Source: an uncultured Bdellovibrionales bacterium | GTDB lineage: Bacteria; Patescibacteriota; Minisyncoccia; Moranbacterales; UBA1568 | Assembly (NCBI GenBank): GCA_964597355.1 | Contig: CAZQWS010000003.1 | Location: forward strand, 15,301 to 79,300 | DNA: 64,000 bases | Direction of reading: 5' to 3' | Shown: positions 2,930 through 60,797 of the stretch, in pieces | Layout of the letters: the number at the start of each line of letters is the position of its first letter | Position numbering within the stretch: position 1 is the first letter of the stretch | Notes under the pieces: generated by a model | Told to the model about the DNA's origin: nothing | What the model saw: only the letters and a program-made list of their open reading frames with translations | Database searches by the model: none | Program-made: the position numbers and the translations under genes

Positions 2930-4309
2930 TTATTCTTCTGTTGTTATGTATTTGTCTCCTTTACTCAAAATGAACGGGCGATTGAGTTTGAGTTCGTATG
3001 TTTCTGTGCCGCTATCCCGAAGTACTGTGACTGTTATCGGCATATCATTCACACCTGGCTGCTTCTCGATTTTGAGATCATACTCATCAGCTTTCACCGT
3101 TTCCGGCAAGCGATATTCCCAGGTCACTTGTTTGGTTGTACCAAGTGGGACATGGACAAGGGCTCCAAAATATTTCTTGCCAAGTTCGCTACCAAAAACG
3201 GCCGGCTTGAAGTTTCCAGTAACTTTTTCCAACCAACTTCCTTCGGGTACATACAGCCGTGAAAAAGTCTGGTAATCACGCGTCATATAGTCTTTTTGCG
3301 TAGCGGTATGTTCGTACGTCACCACAACCTTGGCCTTCTTGGCATCACCACGAAGGTCAAGTGTATAATTAACTGAACGTCGCATCCGATAGTCGCTTTT
3401 CAAGGCATTCAGGTTGGAATCGACCAGCATGAGATAATCATCCTCCCATTTTGTATCAAGCTCCCCGCTCCAACCGGCCGTCTTCACTGTCTCCTGCAAG
3501 TCTTCGTCTTTAAAAAGTATTTGGATGTCCTTCTTATGGAGATCATCCAAAACCACCTTGAAGAGTTCGTACTTTTTCGGGATGGAGAGGTCTTTGACCT
3601 TATCGAGAATGATATTCCCTAACTCATGCATAACTTGTTTGCGATCCCCTCGACTAATCCCCTGCTTATAAAACGCCTGTTCTACCTGGTATTCAAGATC
3701 CAAAACACCCGTTTCAGCGTCATATTCCCCTGGATAACCTGGTACCACTACTGGCCCCGTAATCGAAAGAAATGAAGAAAGCACGTTGGTCGTAATACCG
3801 ATCACGCCATCAAACTCCTCTTTTCCTTCACCCATATGATAAAAATCTTCAGCCGCTTTGGCATTGACCGCCCAATCAGGCGAAACATTTGAGTCACGCA
3901 ACTTGAGCGTCCGCACGCCGAGCGTTTCAGACAATGGATACGGTGCCGGTACGGTATCCGGAATCCTCCCATCGAAGTTAATCACATCATGCGAACTAAA
4001 TTCCGTGACTTCGCCATCGTTCACTTTGAGAATACCAAAAGAACCGATGAAGCCACCACCGGGCCGGAGTTCCATATTATTTTGAAACAAGACCAGAAAT
4101 ACTTTTTCCTCGCCACGCGTATCGTAGAAATGTCCGGCTATTTTGGCGATCGTTTTGAGGTCACCCTGCATTTCTTCAGAAAAAGGCAGGATATTTGAAA
4201 TGTCCGTCAATGAATCCAGTCGGCTGGAGCGAGTTTCCCAGTAAAAATACCAAGCTCCCAAAAAGAGCGCGCTCACCAATATAAATCCGGTCCAGAATTT
4301 CCATGTCAT
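2930..4309 (-). CDS. DUF4012-like membrane-anchored protein (paralog of 60860..62956)
   Basis: N-terminal TM helix after the ATG at 4307-4309. Motif 'NNMELRPGGGFIGSFGIL' is shared with the second copy ('NNHELRPTGGFIGSYALL'). I recall this motif from DUF4012 proteins but cannot confirm it here. Confidence 0.55.
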   Translation of the reverse strand: MTWKFWTGFILVSALFLGAWYFYWETRSSRLDSLTDISNILPFSEEMQGDLKTIAKIAGHFYDTRGEEKVFLVLFQNNMELRPGGGFIGSFGILKVNDGEVTEFSSHDVINFDGRIPDTVPAPYPLSETLGVRTLKLRDSNVSPDWAVNAKAAEDFYHMGEGKEEFDGVIGITTNVLSSFLSITGPVVVPGYPGEYDAETGVLDLEYQVEQAFYKQGISRGDRKQVMHELGNIILDKVKDLSIPKKYELFKVVLDDLHKKDIQILFKDEDLQETVKTAGWSGELDTKWEDDYLMLVDSNLNALKSDYRMRRSVNYTLDLRGDAKKAKVVVTYEHTATQKDYMTRDYQTFSRLYVPEGSWLEKVTGNFKPAVFGSELGKKYFGALVHVPLGTTKQVTWEYRLPETVKADEYDLKIEKQPGVNDMPITVTVLRDSGTETYELKLNRPFILSKGDKYITTEE

Positions 4310-5490: not shown

Positions 5491-6658
5491 GTTTTGATTC
5501 AAAGTGATAGCGGGCTTCGTAGTCCTTCATTGTCTCACCGTAGAGCTCGACTGTTTTCGCGGCAATTGCTTCCCAGCTATAATGCTCGACCACTCGATCC
5601 TTGGCTTTGACTCCAAGTTTGACGGCCTCTTCTGGTCGATTGATATAGTAAGCCAGTTCTTGTTTCAATCCATCCACGTCTTTGGTAGGGAAGGTAACTC
5701 CTGCACCGCCACGAATCGCCTCGACATTGGCTGGAATGTCAGAAACGATAATCGGCAAGCCAAAGGCCATAGCTTCAAGCAACGCCACCGAAAGACCCTC
5801 ATCTTCAGATGGTTGAACAAACATCCCGGCCTCAGTAAAGAGTGTTGCTAGTGGCGTTCTAGTCAGTTCACCAGTAAAGATAATATTGGATCGGCCAGCA
5901 GCCATGAGCTTGAGATAGGCTTCGTATTCTTTGGTTTCTTTGGTACCCGTATGAGTTCCGACAATCACAAGTTTATAGTTGTTAGGCAGTTTGGTCGTAT
6001 CCTCAAGTTCCATAAACGCCTTGATGAGATACTGAATTCCTTTGTGCCCAACCAAACGGGAAACTGACAAGACATAGTTTCCTGGCCGCAAGCGATACTG
6101 GCTCAGGACAGTTTGATCGTGACAAGGTTCTACCTCGGCTCCATTAGGGATCGCAATTGCTTGAGAACCATAGAAAGACCGTGCATACTTTGCCAGGTGT
6201 TCGCTCACCGCGACGGTCCGCTCAGGAATATGGCAGGTAAAAAACTCCGCTGCCTTAAGACAGAGCTGAGCAAACCATCCCCACTTCTGGTGGAAATAAT
6301 CTCGACTATGAAACGTGGCGATCACCCGCGTGCGCGGGATAAAAATTCGAGGAATAAAAGATAGTATCGATGGCCCAATCGACTGAAAATGAATTACATC
6401 ATACCCCTGAAAAAGAGCGTGTAGCGTCGCGAACAAAGCATGCGAAATAGCATCCAAATGCTTGGTATGAATTGAAGGCAACGAAACAAGCTGCACTCCT
6501 TTGAAAGACTGTTTGTCTCGAGGGGTATAGTGAGGTCGAGTATACACCGTCACCTCATGTCCTAACCGGCGAAGCTCCACCGAGAGTTTCTCAACATGCT
6601 TCTCCACCCCACCAGAGAGCGCAGGGATCCCTTTTTGTCCGATGAAAGCAATTTTCAT
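5480..6658 (-). CDS. glycosyltransferase, GT4 family
   Basis: 'MKIAFIGQKGIPALSGGVEKHV...' N-terminal GT-B fold. C-terminal 'E..GLSVALLEAMAFGLPIIVSDIP' is the GT4 EX7E-type motif. Confidence 0.75.
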   Translation of the reverse strand: MKIAFIGQKGIPALSGGVEKHVEKLSVELRRLGHEVTVYTRPHYTPRDKQSFKGVQLVSLPSIHTKHLDAISHALFATLHALFQGYDVIHFQSIGPSILSFIPRIFIPRTRVIATFHSRDYFHQKWGWFAQLCLKAAEFFTCHIPERTVAVSEHLAKYARSFYGSQAIAIPNGAEVEPCHDQTVLSQYRLRPGNYVLSVSRLVGHKGIQYLIKAFMELEDTTKLPNNYKLVIVGTHTGTKETKEYEAYLKLMAAGRSNIIFTGELTRTPLATLFTEAGMFVQPSEDEGLSVALLEAMAFGLPIIVSDIPANVEAIRGGAGVTFPTKDVDGLKQELAYYINRPEEAVKLGVKAKDRVVEHYSWEAIAAKTVELYGETMKDYEARYHFESKHVA

Positions 6659-21766: not shown

Positions 21767-21839
21767 GTGGGTGCGGGGGGAATCGAACCCTCGACCGTTG
21801 GCTTAAAAGGCCACTGCTCTACCGACTGAGCTACGCACC
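21767..21839 (-). tRNA. tRNA-Lys (anticodon UUU)
   Basis: Reverse-complement folds as GGGTGCG/CGCACCC acceptor, D-arm GCTC-AGTCGGTA-GAGC, anticodon loop CTTTTAA, T-loop TTCGATT. No encoded CCA. Confidence 0.75.
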
Positions 21840-21912
21840 CATAGAACACAACATATAACCTACAACAAAATAAGGAAGGCGACAAGCCTTGAAGGTTTAT
21901 CGCTTCCTGTCC

Positions 21913-26262: not shown

Positions 26263-26337
26263 TGGTCGCACCTGGACTCGAACCAGGGACCTTTCGAATG
26301 TGAATCGAACGTTCTAACCAACTGAACTATGCGACCA
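26263..26337 (-). tRNA. tRNA-Val (anticodon CAC)
   Basis: Reverse-complement is GGTCGCATAGTTCAGTTGGTTAGAACGTTCGATTCACATTCGAAAGGTCCCTGGTTCGAGTCCAGGTGCGACCA. Canonical cloverleaf with anticodon loop TTCACAT. Confidence 0.8.
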
Positions 26338-54376: not shown

Positions 54377-56191
54377 TTATTTATTCTTCAAAATTTCCAA
54401 GAAAGCTTTTGGCGGAATAGTCATCCGACCTGTTGCTTGCATGCGTTTCTTACCAGCTTTCTGTTTTTCCAGAAGTTTCTTCTTACGAGAGAAATCACCG
54501 CCATACATATAACCAGTCACATCCTTCCGAAAAGCCGAGATGGTTTCACGTGCAATCACCTTAGCACCAATAGCCGCCTGGAGTGCCACTGCGAAGTTTT
54601 GGCGCGGTAACACTTCCTTTAATTTCGCCACAGTTTTCCTTCCCTCGCTCTGCGCCAGACGCTGAGGTACCATGCGCGAAAAAGCCTCGATTTTTTCATT
54701 GGCCACGAGAATATCAAGTCGTACCACGTCACTTTCTCGGTAACCGATTGGTTCATAGTTCATGGAAGCATACCCCGACGAGACACTTTTGAGGTCATCA
54801 TGGAAATTCACAATCACATCCATAAGCGGCGCATCAAACGTAAGGAGTACTCGCTCCGCATTGATGTACTCGGTGTTTTTGTAAATACTTCGAATAGACT
54901 GACCAAGCTCCATCACGTTCCCGAGATACTCGCTTGGCGTAATAATCGATAAGGCCACGTATGGTTCATACATCGTCTCGATTCCGGCTGGATCAGGCAT
55001 ATCGGTTGGTGAATACAAATCAACCAATTTTTCCTCACTAGCCAGTTTCATTTGATACACCACCGATGGCGTCGTAATGGTTGGCACCAGATTAAACTCA
55101 CGCTCGAGGCGAGCCTGGATAATTTCTAGATGAAGGAGTCCCAGGAAACCACACCGGAATCCTCGCCCCAACGCCTGATTACTCTCGGGCTCAAACACAA
55201 AGGCCGCATCATTCAACTTGAGCTTCTCCAAAGCATCACGCATGAAAGCATAGTCCTCCCCGTCAGTTGGGTACAAGCTCGCATACACCGCTGGTTTGAT
55301 TTCAGTATACCCAGGCAGTGGCTCTGCTTTAAGAGGGTCTCGTTCGCGTGGTTTCAGGGTAATGGTATCTCCCACTCGACATTCCGCAATCGTTTTGAGT
55401 CCGGTGGCAATGTAACCTATATCACCAGCCGTAAGTTTCTCCCCTGCTACCAGCTTGGGCCGGAAATGCCCCACCTCGACTGTCACCGTTTCTGCGGCCG
55501 TCGCCAGAAAATGGAGCGGCGTATCTCGTTCTACACTCCCATCCACGACTTTTACAAAAGCCACCACGCCTTTGTATGTGTCATAGACCGAATCAAAAAT
55601 AAGGGCGCGTAGCGGTTCGCCGAGTTTTCCTTGTGGTGCTGGCACGCTGGTAATCACTCTTTCCAATACCTGCTGAACCCCCACTCCCGTTTTTCCTGAT
55701 GCCAAAAGGATGTCGTCTTCAGCGCAACCAAGTACATGAATAATTTCTTTTTTTGCCTTATCAATTTCAGCATTCGGAAGGTCGATCTTATTAATTACCG
55801 GAATTACCTCAAGTCCCTGCTCGATAGCGAGGTAGAGATTGGCTAGGGTCTGAGCCTGCACTCCTTTGGTCGCATCTACGAGTAAAATAGCACCTTCTAC
55901 CGCCGCCAATGAACGAGATACTTCGTAATGAAAATCGACATGTCCCGGGGTATCAATAAGATTAAGTGTGTATTCCTGACCATTGAAAGCGTACTGCATT
56001 TTGACTGGCTGGAGTTTGATCGTAATCCCTCGCTCCCGTTCGAGATCCATTTGATCCAGGATCTGCTCCTTCATCTTACGTTTTTCGATCGTATGAGTAA
56101 GATCAAGCAGCCGATCCGCAAAGGTCGACTTGCCATGATCGATATGGGCAATAATACAAAAATTGCGAATATTCTCCTGTAACATAAGCAC
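54377..56191 (-). CDS. lepA: translation elongation factor 4 (LepA)
   Basis: 'NFCIIAHIDHGKST' G1, 'DTPGHVDF' G3, 'NKIDL' G4, and the LepA-specific C-terminal domain. Confidence 0.85.
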   Translation of the reverse strand: MLMLQENIRNFCIIAHIDHGKSTFADRLLDLTHTIEKRKMKEQILDQMDLERERGITIKLQPVKMQYAFNGQEYTLNLIDTPGHVDFHYEVSRSLAAVEGAILLVDATKGVQAQTLANLYLAIEQGLEVIPVINKIDLPNAEIDKAKKEIIHVLGCAEDDILLASGKTGVGVQQVLERVITSVPAPQGKLGEPLRALIFDSVYDTYKGVVAFVKVVDGSVERDTPLHFLATAAETVTVEVGHFRPKLVAGEKLTAGDIGYIATGLKTIAECRVGDTITLKPRERDPLKAEPLPGYTEIKPAVYASLYPTDGEDYAFMRDALEKLKLNDAAFVFEPESNQALGRGFRCGFLGLLHLEIIQARLEREFNLVPTITTPSVVYQMKLASEEKLVDLYSPTDMPDPAGIETMYEPYVALSIITPSEYLGNVMELGQSIRSIYKNTEYINAERVLLTFDAPLMDVIVNFHDDLKSVSSGYASMNYEPIGYRESDVVRLDILVANEKIEAFSRMVPQRLAQSEGRKTVAKLKEVLPRQNFAVALQAAIGAKVIARETISAFRKDVTGYMYGGDFSRKKKLLEKQKAGKKRMQATGRMTIPPKAFLEILKNK

Positions 56192-56230
56192 CTCACAGCG
56201 TAGAGGAAAAAGCTCACAAAAGCAAATAAC

Positions 56231-57370
56231 TTATTTCAGTCTGAATTTCAACGCCCGCATCACGTTCCACCCTCTCCCCCACTTCATCATCCCCTGGTAT
56301 GAAGTTAGTATTTCAAGCTCCCCTGACTTCGAGGCTATCTTTCGGAGCATCCTCCGCTTCGTCACCGTCCGTAACACTCGATGGCAGGGGAAATGCACCC
56401 AACCCAAGAAATCCACTCCACTCCCCAGGGTCTCAATCGAGACTTTGTTCGGATGGAGATCAAGACTGAGCCTCAGCTTGAGGAAAGCTTGGATTTTGGT
56501 GAGCAAGGTTTCAAGCTCTTGCTTGCTTTGTGACAACACTACAAAATCATCTGCATAGCGAATGTAATACTTCACTCTGAGTACATGTTTCACAAACTGG
56601 TCAAATTCATTCAGGTAGATATTCATCAGGAGTTGCGAAGTCAGATTGCCCAGAGGTAGTCCCTTCCCCTTGTCATCCCGAGCGCAGTCCCCGCCTGCCG
56701 GACGGGCAGGAAGAGATCCTGACTGGAAGCTGTACACGACTTGTCCAAGAAGCCATAAAATATCCGAGTCTTCAATCCATTCCTCAAGCATCCGTAAGAG
56801 AATCTCCTGATCAATACTGGCAAAGAACTTTCGGATATCACATTTCAAGACAAAGCATTGCTTAGTATAGTTCTTCGAGATTTTTCTTGAGAAGGTTTCA
56901 AATCTGAGTAAAGATTTATGGACTCCCTTGCCATCCTGACAAGAGTAAGAGTCCTGGATGAAACGTCTGAAAAAGGATGGCGAGAGGGCTCTATAGAGGA
57001 GGTGATGCAGCACCCTATCTCTCACGCTCGCTTTGTGAATGTCTCGTGGCTTGGGGTCATTGATCTTGAAAGCCTGATAGGGACCGTGAGTATATGTTTT
57101 CGTCTTGAGAGACTCATGGAGATCAATGAGATGATCCATGAGATGCAGCTCAAACTCCTGGACGTCTTTTTTCTGTTGCTTGCCTTTTCGGAAATTTTTC
57201 CAGGCCAAGAGGAGATTCTCGAGTGATATAATCTCTTGGTAACTGACGATAAATTTTGTTTTTCCCTTATGACCCAGACCCCCCCCGCAGGAATCTTGTC
57301 TTTGACCCAGAAGTTCAAGGCGCTCTACCGATCGTGGCAAGCTATCGTGCTCCATATTCCCAAAGTTCAT
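56231..57370 (-). CDS. DGR reverse transcriptase
   Basis: RT motifs in order: 1 'LENLLLAWKNFRKGK', 2 'PRDIHKASVRDRVLHHLLYRAL', 3 'VLKCDIRKFFASIDQ', 4 'GLPLGNLTSQLLMNIYLNEFD', 5 'YIRYADDFVV' (rc of atcatctgcata at about 56538-56549). Motif 4 has the DGR-specific [I/L]GxxxSQ in place of QGxxxSP. Confidence 0.85.
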   Translation of the reverse strand: MNFGNMEHDSLPRSVERLELLGQRQDSCGGGLGHKGKTKFIVSYQEIISLENLLLAWKNFRKGKQQKKDVQEFELHLMDHLIDLHESLKTKTYTHGPYQAFKINDPKPRDIHKASVRDRVLHHLLYRALSPSFFRRFIQDSYSCQDGKGVHKSLLRFETFSRKISKNYTKQCFVLKCDIRKFFASIDQEILLRMLEEWIEDSDILWLLGQVVYSFQSGSLPARPAGGDCARDDKGKGLPLGNLTSQLLMNIYLNEFDQFVKHVLRVKYYIRYADDFVVLSQSKQELETLLTKIQAFLKLRLSLDLHPNKVSIETLGSGVDFLGWVHFPCHRVLRTVTKRRMLRKIASKSGELEILTSYQGMMKWGRGWNVMRALKFRLK

Positions 57371-57658
57371 CGATATACATTTGGTAGTAAAATTGATACC
57401 CTCTTTCTCGAAATGCTTGAAATCCTGTTTCGAGCCCAGTATGCGAGGATGGAAACCAAATTACAGTACCTGGTAGCCGCCATCAGTAAACTCGATCTCC
57501 TCAAGTTCTTCCTCCAAATCGGTTGGGAAAACCAACTCATCGATACCAAACAATACACCAAACTCTCGGAAGATATGAGTGAGGTAGGGAGAATGCTTGG
57601 CGGCTGGAAAAAAGGCCTGGAAACAAAACTCTCACCGAAGGAGGTAAGAGAAACGTAA
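57269..57658 (+). CDS. avd: Avd-like accessory variability determinant (four-helix-bundle protein), opposite strand to RT/TR/target
   Basis: 129 aa, translated directly from the plus strand. '...HIPKVHRYTFGSKIDTLFLEMLEILFRAQ...LLKFFLQIGWENQLIDTKQYTKLSEDMSEVGRMLGGWKKGL' parallels Bordetella phage Avd as I recall it. Similar size to Avd. Its 5' end overlaps the RT ORF by about 100 nt. Confidence 0.65.
   Translation: MTQTPPAGILSLTQKFKALYRSWQAIVLHIPKVHRYTFGSKIDTLFLEMLEILFRAQYARMETKLQYLVAAISKLDLLKFFLQIGWENQLIDTKQYTKLSEDMSEVGRMLGGWKKGLETKLSPKEVRET
57279..57286. repeat. C8/G8 homopolymer inside the avd/RT overlap
   Basis: gacc cccccc gcagg: eight C on plus. It encodes T-P-P-A in avd and G-G-G in the RT N-terminus. 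Confidence 0.85.
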
Positions 57659-57667
57659 AGAAAGTAG

Positions 57668-57779
57668 CGGAGAAAGAACCTGGTCCCCGGCATTCCACTG
57701 GCCATTCTCGTCGAGCTTCCAATCGTTGACGTTCCACTTGTGGTTATCGGCGTTCCAGTAGAAGTTGACCGTGAAAATT
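57668..57779 (-). repeat. DGR template repeat (TR), 112 bp
   Basis: Aligns to 58151-58262 without gaps. All 16 mismatches are plus-strand T, i.e. minus-strand A, in this copy. In the target frame it would encode IFTVNFYWNADNHKWNVNDWKLDENGQWNAGDQVLSP, rich in AAC/AAT. Confidence 0.85.
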
Positions 57780-58129
57780 CTGTGTCTCGAGCCATCTATG
57801 CCACCACCCTTCGATAGCTCTTAAGGTTGCATCGTATCTGGGACCTCGAAGTCCACCAGCTCAAGACACCAACTCTCTTACTAAGATTTTTTGAAAATTG
57901 ACGACCCTCCTACGCGAGACTTGCCTACCACTCAGACAGGCGTATCCGGCGTAGCTCTCGCCAGTTCAATGCCCAATACGATGACTCCCAAGCCCATAGC
58001 CGGAGAGATTACGATCATATCGTTTAGATTGTATCAAAATAAAAGGCCCCGGGAAACTTTTTGCAAAGTGTCCAAGGGCCCACTGGTCCGCCTTTGGCGG
58101 AAGTGTCCAAGGGTCAGTTGACCCGATGA

Positions 58130-58764
58130 CTAGCGTGCCTGAGAGTTGGCCGGAGAAAGAACCTGGTCCCCGGCAGGCCACAGGCCACGCTCGCCGAGCT
58201 TCCAAGCGTCGACGTCCCACTCGTGGCTAACGGCGTCCCAGCAGAAGTTGACCGCGAAAACTTCGCCATTCACCCCCACCAAGTACATCAGGAAGTAACC
58301 CGGCATACCGTTGGGGTGGAGATCGATCAGGGAGATGATGTCCTCCCACTGGCCCAAGAAGGGCTTGATGAGTTCGGTCTGAATGACGCTATCGAACGCC
58401 GACCGCTGAAGCTCGTCGTTGTGGTAGACGCGCTCCGGTGCCGCTTCCACCGGCTTGAGGGCTGGCAGGATCCGCTCTCGGAAGGAGGGCGAGACCCAGA
58501 GACCCGGGCGTTCGGCAAAGGCTTGCGTCGGATCCGTCGACTGAGTGCGAGCCGGCAGCTTGATGGGAGATAGCTGCTTGAGAAGCGGTACGGGGACGAT
58601 TTGGGATCGGCCAGCGAGTAGCTCACCAAGCTGGAAGCAAAACTCTCTGTTTTGAGGGTTATCCTTGGCGAGGCGGCTCAGCAGCTTGGCTGCAGTTTCA
58701 CCGTGTTCGTCAGGAACAAACATAGCTGCTTTCGTGATCATCCCCACTGTTGCATTACTGGACA
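58130..58764 (-). CDS. DGR target (variable) protein with C-terminal C-type-lectin-like VR
   Basis: ORF open to 58822 (GTG). The best start is the ATG at 58762-58764, preceded by AGGAGA at -6 (MSSNATVGMITK...). C-terminal 37 aa are encoded by the VR. No signal peptide. GC about 62-68%. Confidence 0.7.
58151..58262 (-). repeat. DGR variable repeat (VR) at 3' end of target gene
   Basis: Encodes ...FAVNFCWDAVSHEWDVDAWKLGERGLWPAGDQVLSP. The 25 bp at the transcript-3' end (58151-58175) are identical to TR and GC-rich (tGCCGGGGACCAGGttctttctccg), which is IMH-like. Confidence 0.85.
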
Positions 58765-58981
58765 TGTCTTTCTCCTGTTTGGAGCGAGCTGTACGGCATT
58801 GACCAGACATTGGTTTCACCACAGCCCCTCACCTTTCTCTATGATTCTTGATCACCTCAAGAAATAACTACACAAATTCGTACGGTCGAGCAGAATTGTG
58901 CAGTATGCCTCTTACAAAGATTGATTGCGGAAGAGAAAAATAAGGGGCTATGGCAAAACTCTAGATTTTTAATGAACTAAT

Positions 58982-59010
58982 TATTATACACCTTTTTAGT
59001 GTTTTTTACA
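58982..59010 (-). promoter_or_regulatory. sigma70-like promoter TTGTAA-17-TATAAT upstream of DGR target gene
   Basis: Minus strand reads cTTGTAAaaaacactaaaaaggtgTATAATaattag. -35 at 59005-59010, -10 at 58982-58987, about 210 nt upstream of the start. Confidence 0.4.
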
Positions 59011-59072
59011 AGAGCAGGGAGATGCCAAAATAAGCCATTACACGGTTACTTGGAAGCCGAACTTCCAAGTAG

Positions 59073-60797
59073 TTACCAGTCCCCTTTTTCGGGATGGTCT
59101 TGGGTAAGTGCGACGGTTTCCGGTCGGCGAAATACTCGACAAAGGATGAAACGACGAATATCCTCGTACTCAGGCAAATGATACCAGGCTGAAAGAGCTA
59201 CATAGGTTCCCAGGCCAATGACAAGGCCAAGGCCGAGCTTCACCAAAACCTCAACAAATGTATCAAGACGATCAATAGTGAGCGCAAAAAGTCCCTTGGA
59301 AAGTTGGGCTACAAGTGCCGCTGCAAGAGCAATGAACAAAATCTTAAAGAGAGGCGCAAAAAACTTGAAGTCACTCCAACTCGCAAGTCGCTGCCGAAGA
59401 AAGACATACAGGAAGAGAAGTTGTACAGTAACACCAATCGAAAAAGCTAAACCTAGTCCAAAGACTTCAAAACGGGGGAGAAAAAACGGGACCAGTCCCA
59501 AATGTACTGTTTCACCCACCAGCGCAGCTATCAAAGGAAGTCTCGTATCTTGTAATGCGAAAAAGGCACGCACAAAAAGAGGGATCAGGCACTGAGCAAA
59601 AAGTGAGAGCGAGAGGATGCCTAATATCTGAAATGTCAGGATTGTATCTTCCCAGTTAAAGGCTCCTGTACCAAGGACTATACGGACAATTTCCGCTCGA
59701 AAGATAATCATAAAGAGCGAGAGCGGTATAACGAAGTAAAGAATACGTTGCACAGTACGATTAAAGATTTCAAAAAAGTCTTTAATCGCACCTTTTCCGG
59801 CAAATGAAGACAGGACTGGGAAAGCAGCTACCGCAAATGAAATACCGAAAAGACCAAGTGGCACACTTTGAATATTGGTGGCTAGAGTTACCACTGCGAG
59901 ACTTCCCGAAGCCAAGGTTGAAGCGAACACCGTAACGATAAGAAGGCTGATTTGATTGATAGCCATAGCTAGTGAGCGTGGAATCATCAGTCGTACCACT
60001 TGGCGAGTTGAAGCATCAAGTAAATGCTTCCAGTGGAACCTGCGATATTGGTAGCCAGCATGAGTCACAGCCGGATACTGAACTAAGACATGGAGAAATG
60101 CTCCGAGCACAACGCCCCAAGCCAAGCCAGCTATTCCAAAGTAGGGAACAAAACAAACAATCCCAATAATAATACCAACATTATAAAAAATGGGTGCTAG
60201 TGAGTATGCAAGAAAACGCTTCAAAGAAATAAGCACCCCACCAAACACTGCCGAGAGTGCGAGGAGAACAGGCGACAACAGCATAATGCGAGTGAGGGTA
60301 GCCACAAGGGCTTGTTTCTCCTCTGGAAAACCTGGAGCAATCCAGGTAGCTACCCACGGAGCAAAGAGAATACCAAGAAGCGCTGCACCGCCGAGAGTTA
60401 GGAGAAGAAGATAGAGGACGCTATGCATAAGCCGCCAGGCTTCATTTTCTTTATCCTTGCCCATAAGCTCGGTAAAGACTGGAACAAAAGCTGCCGAGAG
60501 CGCTCCGAGTACAAGAAAGCCGTAAATAAAATCCGGCAAACGAAAAGCGGCATAATAGGCATCAAGCGTGTCACCAGCACCAAAAGAAGAGGCGAGGAGA
60601 CGGTCACGGACGAAACCAAGCACTCGACTCATTACTCCGGCGAGTGCGATAATAAAAGCTGCTCCACCAAGAGAGGCCACAGGCAACCGACTCTGTCGCA
60701 ACCATTTCAGAAAGAAAAATTTCACAATAAGGAAAATTATATTTTGATCAATCCTGACACCAAGACTCAATACTCTTACTACCCCAACCCCTCTCAA
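59073..60797 (-). CDS. murJ: lipid II flippase MurJ (MviN)
   Basis: 14-TM protein with 'SRVLGFVRDRLLASSFGAGDTLDAYYAAFRLPD' near the N-terminus. Start uncertain: the track ORF begins at 60797 and alternative starts lie downstream. A hairpin (cttggaag-ccgaa-cttccaag, about 59049-59069) follows the stop. Confidence 0.7.
   Translation of the reverse strand: MRGVGVVRVLSLGVRIDQNIIFLIVKFFFLKWLRQSRLPVASLGGAAFIIALAGVMSRVLGFVRDRLLASSFGAGDTLDAYYAAFRLPDFIYGFLVLGALSAAFVPVFTELMGKDKENEAWRLMHSVLYLLLLTLGGAALLGILFAPWVATWIAPGFPEEKQALVATLTRIMLLSPVLLALSAVFGGVLISLKRFLAYSLAPIFYNVGIIIGIVCFVPYFGIAGLAWGVVLGAFLHVLVQYPAVTHAGYQYRRFHWKHLLDASTRQVVRLMIPRSLAMAINQISLLIVTVFASTLASGSLAVVTLATNIQSVPLGLFGISFAVAAFPVLSSFAGKGAIKDFFEIFNRTVQRILYFVIPLSLFMIIFRAEIVRIVLGTGAFNWEDTILTFQILGILSLSLFAQCLIPLFVRAFFALQDTRLPLIAALVGETVHLGLVPFFLPRFEVFGLGLAFSIGVTVQLLFLYVFLRQRLASWSDFKFFAPLFKILFIALAAALVAQLSKGLFALTIDRLDTFVEVLVKLGLGLVIGLGTYVALSAWYHLPEYEDIRRFILCRVFRRPETVALTQDHPEKGDW

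Follow-up and report, generated by a model that had tools for sequence, protein, structure and literature searches.

A predicted complete B3-type diversity-generating retroelement with a covarying leader RNA in a Candidatus Moranbacteria contig

Background

The diversity-generating retroelement (DGR) described here lies in a 64,000-nucleotide stretch of DNA (hereafter the window) from contig CAZQWS010000003.1 of an uncultured bacterium (assembly GCA_964597355.1, positions 15,301 to 79,300). Its closest described relatives are the DGRs of B3 architecture, in which a template repeat (TR) is followed by a reversed avd and the reverse transcriptase (RT) gene, written TR-(avd)-RT (Wu et al. 2018, Nucleic Acids Research, PMC5758913). 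We equate this architecture with DGR clade 2 of Roux et al. (2021, PMC8144416), who described a cellular DGR clade limited to Patescibacteria, with targets that typically lack a recognisable transmembrane or other domain. The DGR of Bordetella phage BPP-1 has the order mtd-avd-TR-brt, and the RT-10 motif is located in its TR-RT spacer (Weinberg et al.). A cryo-electron microscopy preprint reported, for 207 DGRs that include some of the candidate phyla radiation (CPR), putative Avd-binding stem-loops just downstream of the TR (Handa et al., 10.1101/2023.10.23.563531).

Results and discussion

Organisation of the locus

We found that the window most probably carries, with a probability of roughly 90% in our estimate, an intact and complete chromosomal DGR of the CPR-specific B3 architecture in a Candidatus Moranbacteria host. 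The elements are arranged in the order target gene with its variable repeat (VR), leader, TR, reverse-strand avd and RT gene, occupying about 2.8 kb with a single target; coordinates count from the first letter of the window, and the TR, VR, target and RT are all on the minus strand. The initial annotation, made from the sequence without database searches, had proposed a complete DGR, and the combination of an adenine footprint between TR and VR, an RT of DGR type, a target with a C-terminal VR and an Avd protein bears this out. As for the host, the LepA protein encoded in the window shares a 90%-identity cluster with TXH06509.1, elongation factor 4 from a metagenome-assembled genome (MAG) of a Candidatus Moranbacteria bacterium.

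The locus resembles the B3/clade 2 DGRs in its TR-(avd)-RT order with a reverse avd, in having one adjacent upstream target with the VR at the C-terminus, in the small size of that target and its lack of recognisable domains, in its CPR host and cellular rather than viral setting, and in the abundance of its relatives in metagenomes with groundwater-style sample names. No difference in kind was found, and two features of the locus, a structured leader RNA and a CTTGG motif array, are undescribed in the main texts on B3 and clade 2 (PMC5758913, PMC8144416).

The TR/VR pair and its adenine footprint

The TR (57668-57779) and the VR (58151-58262) align over 112 bp with no gaps, as initially annotated, and a recount gave 16 mismatches, each with an A in the TR copy (ten A>G, four A>C and two A>T). 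The TR contains 30 adenines, 16 of which are altered in the VR, and no mismatch falls at any of the 82 non-A positions; the hypergeometric probability of all 16 falling on adenines is 1.5e-11. The boundaries of the repeat are exact, because the next base upstream, position 57780, is a non-A mismatch just outside it. An independent repeat search of the window recovered the same pair, and a search of the 64 kb for additional VR-like copies found none.

The 3'-most 25 bp, TGCCGGGGACCAGGTTCTTTCTCCG, are shared without change by both copies (58151-58175 in the VR, 57668-57692 in the TR) and have a GC content of 64%, against 48% for the window, again as initially annotated. By analogy with the DGR of phage BPP-1, this stretch resembles an initiation of mutagenic homing (IMH) sequence and may act in homing. 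A comparison of the kind made between IMH and IMH* showed that the two 25-bp ends are the same and that the flanks differ, with a CTTGG array following the VR and the D strand and hairpin described below following the TR; being identical in both copies, the 25-bp end would therefore be unable by itself to give direction to homing.

Translation confirmed the peptides originally given for the intergenic and the genic copy. The VR encodes the last ~37 residues of the target, followed by a tail of six residues, and, read in the target frame, 29 of the 30 TR adenines are at codon position 1 or 2, including seven AAY codons, giving the TR a coding capacity of about 1e17 peptides.

Reverse transcriptase and Avd

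The RT gene (56231-57370, minus strand) encodes 379 amino acids from the ATG at 57370, with a match to Pfam RVT_1, a YADD catalytic motif and, encoded at 56653, the motif 4 sequence LGNLTSQ, which had been noted previously as a DGR hallmark and is indeed within this open reading frame (ORF), downstream of the target on the same strand. Its top match in the PDB was 8ub7 with 141 bits, followed by retron-type and group II intron RTs with 62 bits. Entry 8ub7 is the Bordetella phage bRT: residues I181, G182 and Q187 of bRT, as numbered in the preprint, align to PIGSLTSQ of 8ub7, and nine PDB entries fit the nine complexes reported there (10.1101/2023.10.23.563531). Thus, the profile comparison proposed in the initial annotation places the RT nearest to a solved DGR enzyme rather than to the group II or retron enzymes. 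A tblastn search with the RT matched RTs in 172 phage records, for example those of Bordetella phages, ANMV-1 and Vibrio phage VP585, which we take to carry DGRs.

The repeat could in principle be a plain duplication or gene-conversion tract that happens to lie next to a group II, retron or defence RT, its adenine bias being due to chance. The top NCBIfam model for the RT is indeed the group II intron RT/maturase, with 133.5 bits, but this model heads the list because the library has no DGR RT model, the score falls well short of the model's cut-off, which is 300, and the RT scores under the curated cut-off of every one of the eight NCBIfam RT models (group II, retron, Abi and DRT). The higher score to bRT than to the next-best solved RTs, the probability of 1.5e-11 for the adenine bias, its recurrence in 48 independent loci of the same gene order, the presence of an Avd at the locus and the lack of any intron RNA or retron family in an Rfam scan all speak against such a coincidence. 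We therefore consider this explanation refuted as far as sequence analysis can go and give it practically no weight.

The avd gene (57269-57658, plus strand), which was absent from the initial annotation, encodes a basic protein of 129 amino acids (pI 9.6) from the ATG at 57269, with alternative TTG starts at 57296 and 57302, and scores 60.1 bits against Pfam bAvd (cut-off 40). It is located in the stretch that separates the TR from the RT gene, and its strand is opposite to that of the target, TR and RT. The avd and RT genes overlap divergently at their 5' ends, and the final codons of avd underlie the sequence just 3' of the TR. A homopolymer of eight G residues (G8; 57279-57286, minus strand) is present inside the divergent overlap. 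At the same site the closest diverged relative, L001, has nine G residues plus TAT, placing the RT N-terminus in another frame with a TTG start (MNFWVK...), and the L001-type N-terminal peptide is also present, out of frame, in the window; it is possible that G8 is a slippage site affecting expression of the RT, Avd or both.

Relatives of the element

Scanned with the RT, metagenomes yielded at least 571 relatives, of which the best 80 (53-60% identity) were retrieved. LGNLTSQ and YADD were each found in 78 of the 80 RTs. In 75 of the best 80 loci, avd is on the opposite strand and abuts the RT gene, and 48 of them combine the same layout with a TR/VR pair in which at least 70%, and mostly 100%, of the mismatches are on A. 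The layout of the relatives is constant, the VR being followed after ~240-420 nt by the TR, then by the avd stop codon, mostly within ~25 nt, and by the RT gene, and the targets in the retrieved loci are all small (~190-250 amino acids) with the VR at the extreme C-terminus. Since the relatives are abundant and share this layout and adenine bias, the locus is an ordinary member of an abundant, already known DGR lineage.

The segment of the RT gene at 56668-56745 has a GC content of 63% and codes for the loop ahead of motif 4. A disruption of the enzyme by a GC-rich insertion at this point was considered and rejected, as the loop varies from 17 to 40 amino acids across the 80 relatives and marks a site of hypervariable insertion in an enzyme that is conserved elsewhere.

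One member of the lineage, L057, has two targets, with one TR and two VRs, one on each side of the RT gene (3168-3274, 3604-3710 and 5685-5791); each VR shows 16 of 16 mismatches on adenines.

The window element lies between housekeeping genes and is flanked downstream by lepA (54377-56191) and upstream by an ORF for a multi-pass membrane protein of 574 amino acids (59073-60797), presumably MurJ-like. In L001, the DGR is instead between uvrB-side genes and uvrA. The differing flanks indicate that the whole cassette occupies different chromosomal sites in related genomes.

Comparison with the BPP-1 element

As in BPP-1, the window element has an RT that shares the catalytic and fidelity-related residues (I/LGxxxSQ and YxDD motifs), with 141 bits of similarity to bRT, a basic Avd partner, adenine-specific mutagenesis, a GC-rich identical segment ending both VR and TR, and a stem-loop just 3' of the TR. 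The two differ in the position of avd, which in BPP-1 is upstream of the TR on the same strand, whereas the window has it downstream and on the other strand, making the TR-RT spacer antisense avd. A duplex between a leader segment, U, and a segment directly 3' of the TR, D, corresponds to the BPP-1 upstream:downstream duplex termed cPRT Stop, formed by avd and the spacer Sp (10.1101/2023.10.23.563531). The upstream partner of this duplex in BPP-1 is the 3' end of avd, whereas in the window it belongs to a dedicated non-coding leader of ~245 nt; this leader would do what the avd 3' end and the spacer do in BPP-1, because in B3 elements the antisense avd fills the spacer. In addition, a 12-bp helix formed entirely within the leader adjoins the TR in the window, and no TR:Sp primer duplex was found there. 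IMH and IMH* differ in BPP-1, whereas VR and TR in the window are identical over the IMH-like stretch. Finally, the BPP-1 DGR is phage-borne and that of the window is chromosomal, with a target that is not recognisably Mtd-like.

A predicted structured leader RNA

The leader (57780-58022, minus strand) is predicted by RNAalifold, covariation and a covariance model to be a structured part of the TR RNA. It contains two hairpins, P1 (58006-57985) and P2 (57954-57910), each with a conserved GAUUACGGUUU-type loop, and the long-range 12-bp helix (57869-57858 with 57793-57782), which encloses two further hairpins (57854-57841 and 57827-57806). In the RNAalifold consensus, 35 of 39 pairs show compensatory changes. 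Paired cells amount to 93.3%, compared with 69.3% in shuffled alignments and 39-46% when the partners are slid, and the covariation score is 0.739 against 0.283 for the shuffles, none of 500 scoring as high. A covariance model with 107 positions and 23 pairs, covering the TR-proximal domain, gave 65 hits, one per DGR locus and on the RT strand, 21 of which were in loci outside the set used to build the model, and no hit in 683 kb of control viral loci, elsewhere in the window or in L003, a relative lacking the DGR core.

Rfam includes the motifs of Weinberg and colleagues, RT-10 among them, and at E<=10 no Rfam family matched the leader region. A scan of viral contigs with the 14-mer GAAGATACTTGGTG gave at least 120 matches; these look like chance, since none of the 80 listed loci, which were reused as negative controls, fits the covariance model.

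The 12-bp helix ends 3 nt ahead of the TR, and 43 of 45 loci have the start of their TR/VR homology within -2 to +8 nt of the helix. This coincidence suggests that the helix may be a physical stop for cDNA synthesis. Just 5' of the helix is the U strand, GUAAGAGAGU (57872-57881), which is predicted to pair with the D strand, ACUUUCUUUAC (57655-57665), directly 3' of the TR, in a duplex of -8.6 kcal/mol. Across loci the consensus is AAAUGAAGA paired with UCUUCAUUU, with compensatory changes, and native U and D partners have a mean pairing energy of -6.3 kcal/mol, compared with -4.3 kcal/mol for non-native partners (Mann-Whitney p=3.6e-8).

Beyond the D strand is a hairpin, CUCUUACC-UCCUUC-GGUGAGAG (57650-57629), followed by UUUU (57628-57625), which together occupy 57625-57650 on the minus strand, antisense to the last codons of avd. 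Hairpins of 7-13 bp are found at the same place in nearly all of the 46 distinct loci, mostly 13-18 nt past the TR, and in 91% their z score against shuffled sequences is below -2. The basal pairs C-G, U-A and C-G are conserved, and pairs 4 to 8 show five or six pair types. In position, the hairpin matches the class of stem-loops seen in the 207 DGRs (10.1101/2023.10.23.563531).

Flanks of the VR and a putative TR-RNA promoter

The 3' flank of the VR (58066-58124, minus strand) contains two 13-nt direct repeats, CCCTTGGACACTT (58113-58101 and 58078-58066), the palindromes GGGTCAACTGACCC (58124-58111) and CCGCCAAAGGCGG (58100-58088), and an array of CTTGG, CTTAG and CTTTG motifs. The array is present between the VR and the target terminator in all 46 distinct loci and is not found in the TR flank; CTTGG occurs 0.96 times per flank (control regions, 0.00), and the degenerate motif 2.04 times (shuffled sequences, 0.38). 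We suggest that the array is a candidate target-site recognition element. A hairpin (58081-58045) followed by a T-tract (58044-58036) is likely to be the terminator of the target gene (58036-58081, minus strand); it failed a strict terminator scan, and a hairpin with a T-run is predicted at the same place in the relatives.

Directly beyond the T-tract, GATACAAT (58028-58035, minus strand) forms a TG-extended, -10-like TAnAAT box, conserved as 'TTTTG.TA.AAT' columns in the 46-locus alignments, which judging from its sequence is likely to be the promoter of the TR RNA. Homology with the cassette-less L003 stops at this box.

Target protein

The target gene (58130-58765, minus strand) encodes 211 amino acids from the ATG at 58765; a GTG at 58822 would extend the protein to 230 amino acids, and the homologues begin at the position equivalent to MSSNAT. 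A promoter-like site, TTGTAA-17-TATAAT (58983-59011, minus strand), with 10 of 12 matches in a consensus scan, may serve as its promoter. The protein is acidic (pI 5.2) and lacks transmembrane or other hydrophobic segments. Its homologues vary mainly at the VR codons, and the scaffold residues W, V, L, E and G are invariant. An exhaustive profile search found 510 representatives of the family at 50% identity, mostly of ~200 amino acids, compared with four in a word-index search.

The initial annotation had read the variable region as that of a C-type-lectin (CLec) fold. Searches gave no sequence match of this kind: the target and 90 aligned relatives matched no Pfam family, the target had no NCBIfam or PDB match, the family profile matched no PDB sequence, including the solved CLec variable proteins, and a lenient Pfam scan (E<=10) of eight proteins from five target classes gave no lectin or formylglycine-generating enzyme (FGE) signal. 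Thus, no sequence link to the FGE-sulfatase, Mtd, DUF1566 or lectin families was found.

An AlphaFold2 model from a 90-sequence alignment, which replaced a run with only five sequences (predicted local distance difference test, pLDDT, 51.6), had a mean pLDDT of 87, exceeding 94 over residues 61-205. It consists of three ill-defined N-terminal helices and a compact alpha/beta domain, and the VR is carried on the last four strands (157-163, 169-177, 182-189 and 201-205), where the alternating variable residues would line one face of a sheet. A Foldseek comparison, the structural check on the C-terminal region proposed initially, found no neighbour of the model in the PDB or BFVD.

The nearest described counterparts are AvpA and related CLec variable proteins of archaeal and groundwater origin, which likewise are small, have a single domain, come from groundwater lineages not yet cultivated and have the C-terminal strand encoded by the IMH (Handa et al. 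2016, PMC5006420). They share no detectable sequence relationship with the window target, and the window family profiles hit no DGR variable protein in the PDB; AvpA also has 46 residues past the VR, whereas the VR of the window target is at the extreme C-terminus. In place of the AvpA motif RFXGV, the window family has WxAG at the equivalent position. Sister target classes of the same RT lineage, which on profile comparison are probably homologous to the window family (hhalign 69%, E 4e-5), terminate in RFAGV(R), recalling the AvpA motif, and despite this a sister-class profile found no CLec or AvpA match in the PDB. We judge the chances about even that the variable domain is a very divergent, minimal CLec fold; the sequence kinship to CLec families and solved proteins expected of such a fold was not found.

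A family member with 36% identity, L006 (4959-5468), was found in a MAG labelled Bdellovibrionales, with RT and avd absent within 5 kb on each side; it is a single distant locus from a scan of genome contigs with the five-sequence alignment. Possible reasons are an occurrence of the family outside DGRs, targeting of the protein in trans or misbinning of the contig.

State of the element

Several observations weigh against the reading of an intact and complete DGR. Against the NCBIfam model DivGenRetAVD, Avd scored 71.1 bits and did not reach the cut-off of 80. No primer-type duplex between the final 30 nt of the TR and the region +35 to +170 exceeded the level of shuffled sequences (median z 0.01), and the best duplexes were at no conserved position. 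The 3' hairpin is the sole terminator-like site within 56000-59200, with UUUU right behind the stem in 38 of 46 loci, so that it may be read as an intrinsic terminator rather than an RT/Avd-binding element, ending a TR RNA of ~400 nt and preventing antisense transcription through avd, with the RT transcribed separately. The VR had no mismatches in five other assemblies of the same strain from different runs (L005, L088, L089, L090 and L095). In addition, the nearest relatives appear to be decaying, with a nonsense codon in the RT of L001 and L002 and the loss of TR, avd and RT in L003.

Termination at the hairpin would avoid convergent transcription with avd. On the other hand, the U-tract is short, with four U residues, and the preprint reads the stem-loops at this place in 207 DGRs as Avd-binding; the two roles are compatible. 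We regard the terminator as a tentative reading, somewhat weaker than an even chance. A 14-bp duplex of the TR 3' end, present in the window and L001, was considered as a primer site and rejected, as it is not conserved elsewhere.

In L001 (8043-8045), and also in L002 from an independent run, an in-frame TGA replaces the motif-4 glycine, giving GLPL*NLTSQ. Recoding of UGA as glycine was rejected, since the standard code leaves the contig's other long genes intact, and from its sequence the RT of these two loci looks recently inactivated. The TR and VR of L001, the closest diverged relative, show 20 A mismatches and two non-A mismatches. L003 (1117-1930) encodes a target homologue with a clearly diversified VR but without TR, avd and RT, a UvrA gene following it; its homology to the window ends at ~58031. 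The DGR core appears to have been deleted here, leaving the VR frozen.

By this token, the window element could itself be a recently silenced relic, its VR now a frozen allele, as the unchanged VR in all five further assemblies covering it and the decay of the nearest relatives would suggest. Against this, the window retains the RT, Avd, TR and every conserved cis element in intact form, and none of the 82 non-A positions is mismatched, implying no drift since the last homing event. Moreover, the five VR-covering contigs are 99.5-100% identical to the window, with strains ~100% identical over 2-3 kb and therefore little time apart, and they are consensus sequences that hide minority variants, so that the comparison has low power to detect activity. 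We find the relic reading unlikely and, on sequence grounds, rate the element as competent and recently used. The asymmetric mismatches had been read as a sign of ongoing or recent retrohoming; recent use is supported by the lack of non-A drift and by the intact parts, whereas ongoing activity is not supported by the VR, which is identical in the five assemblies.

Two features of the assemblies stand apart from this question. L005, which is 99.7% identical to the window, has six differences, all at 58340-58369, a part of the target gene that lies upstream of the VR; they show no adenine specificity, one of them changes I to V, and the cluster could represent a small recombination tract or strain mixing during assembly. 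Three independent Logan contigs, L088, L090 and L091, start exactly at 56833 in the RT gene, and L093 is 10 nt off, suggesting a branch point of the assembly graph caused by strain polymorphism or by a repeat just beyond.

A model of mutagenic homing

The A-specific footprint, the gene set, the lineage-wide architecture, the covarying helices and the coincidence of helix and TR boundary are observed, and from them we propose the following model. A transcript would start at the TAnAAT box near 58030, and run through the ~245-nt leader, the 112-nt TR and the 3' hairpin. The U strand of the leader would pair with the D strand after the TR, and the 12-bp helix would stack on the 5' end of the TR, keeping the TR as a closed loop. 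The RT with the basic Avd would copy the TR into cDNA, misincorporating opposite adenines, and synthesis would halt at the 12-bp helix, which would set the 5' limit of the TR/VR homology. The VR at the 3' end of the target would then be exchanged for the cDNA, with the 25-bp GC-rich end common to both copies as a guide and probably also the CTTGG array, which is behind the VR but not the TR. In this way, up to 20 codons for the C-terminal beta-strands of a small, soluble and acidic protein would be varied. We infer the start and end of the transcript, the roles of the RNA elements and of the CTTGG array, any activity at the present day and what the target does.

A tentative proposal, which we hold at somewhat under even odds, is that the leader represents an undescribed class of structured RNA acting as the scaffold of the ribonucleoprotein (RNP) of B3 DGRs, and that the target carries its VR on a C-terminal beta-meander that is not recognisably a CLec fold. 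If true, the target family would depart from the rule that the variable domains of DGRs have CLec folds.

Elsewhere in the 64 kb, the only Rfam matches above the gathering threshold are two minus-strand tRNA genes (21768-21840 and 26263-26336).

Implications

As a DGR, the window element is one more among tens of thousands already catalogued, and CPR bacteria are known to be enriched in the same architecture. Its value is that of a clean, intact and compact reference for a lineage that is abundant in metagenomes, and to our knowledge the B3-type CPR DGRs have never been studied experimentally. The trio of an intact element in the window, a nonsense-RT element in L001 and a cassette-deleted locus in L003 illustrates how fast DGRs may decay. 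The target family is unannotated, and its confident model, which lacks a strong structural neighbour, sharpens the question of whether CPR targets have CLec folds. The RNA architecture backed by covariation, for which we found no description in the main texts searched, adds leader helices, a clamp duplex and a 3' hairpin that bear on RNP assembly in elements with avd antisense in the TR-RT spacer.

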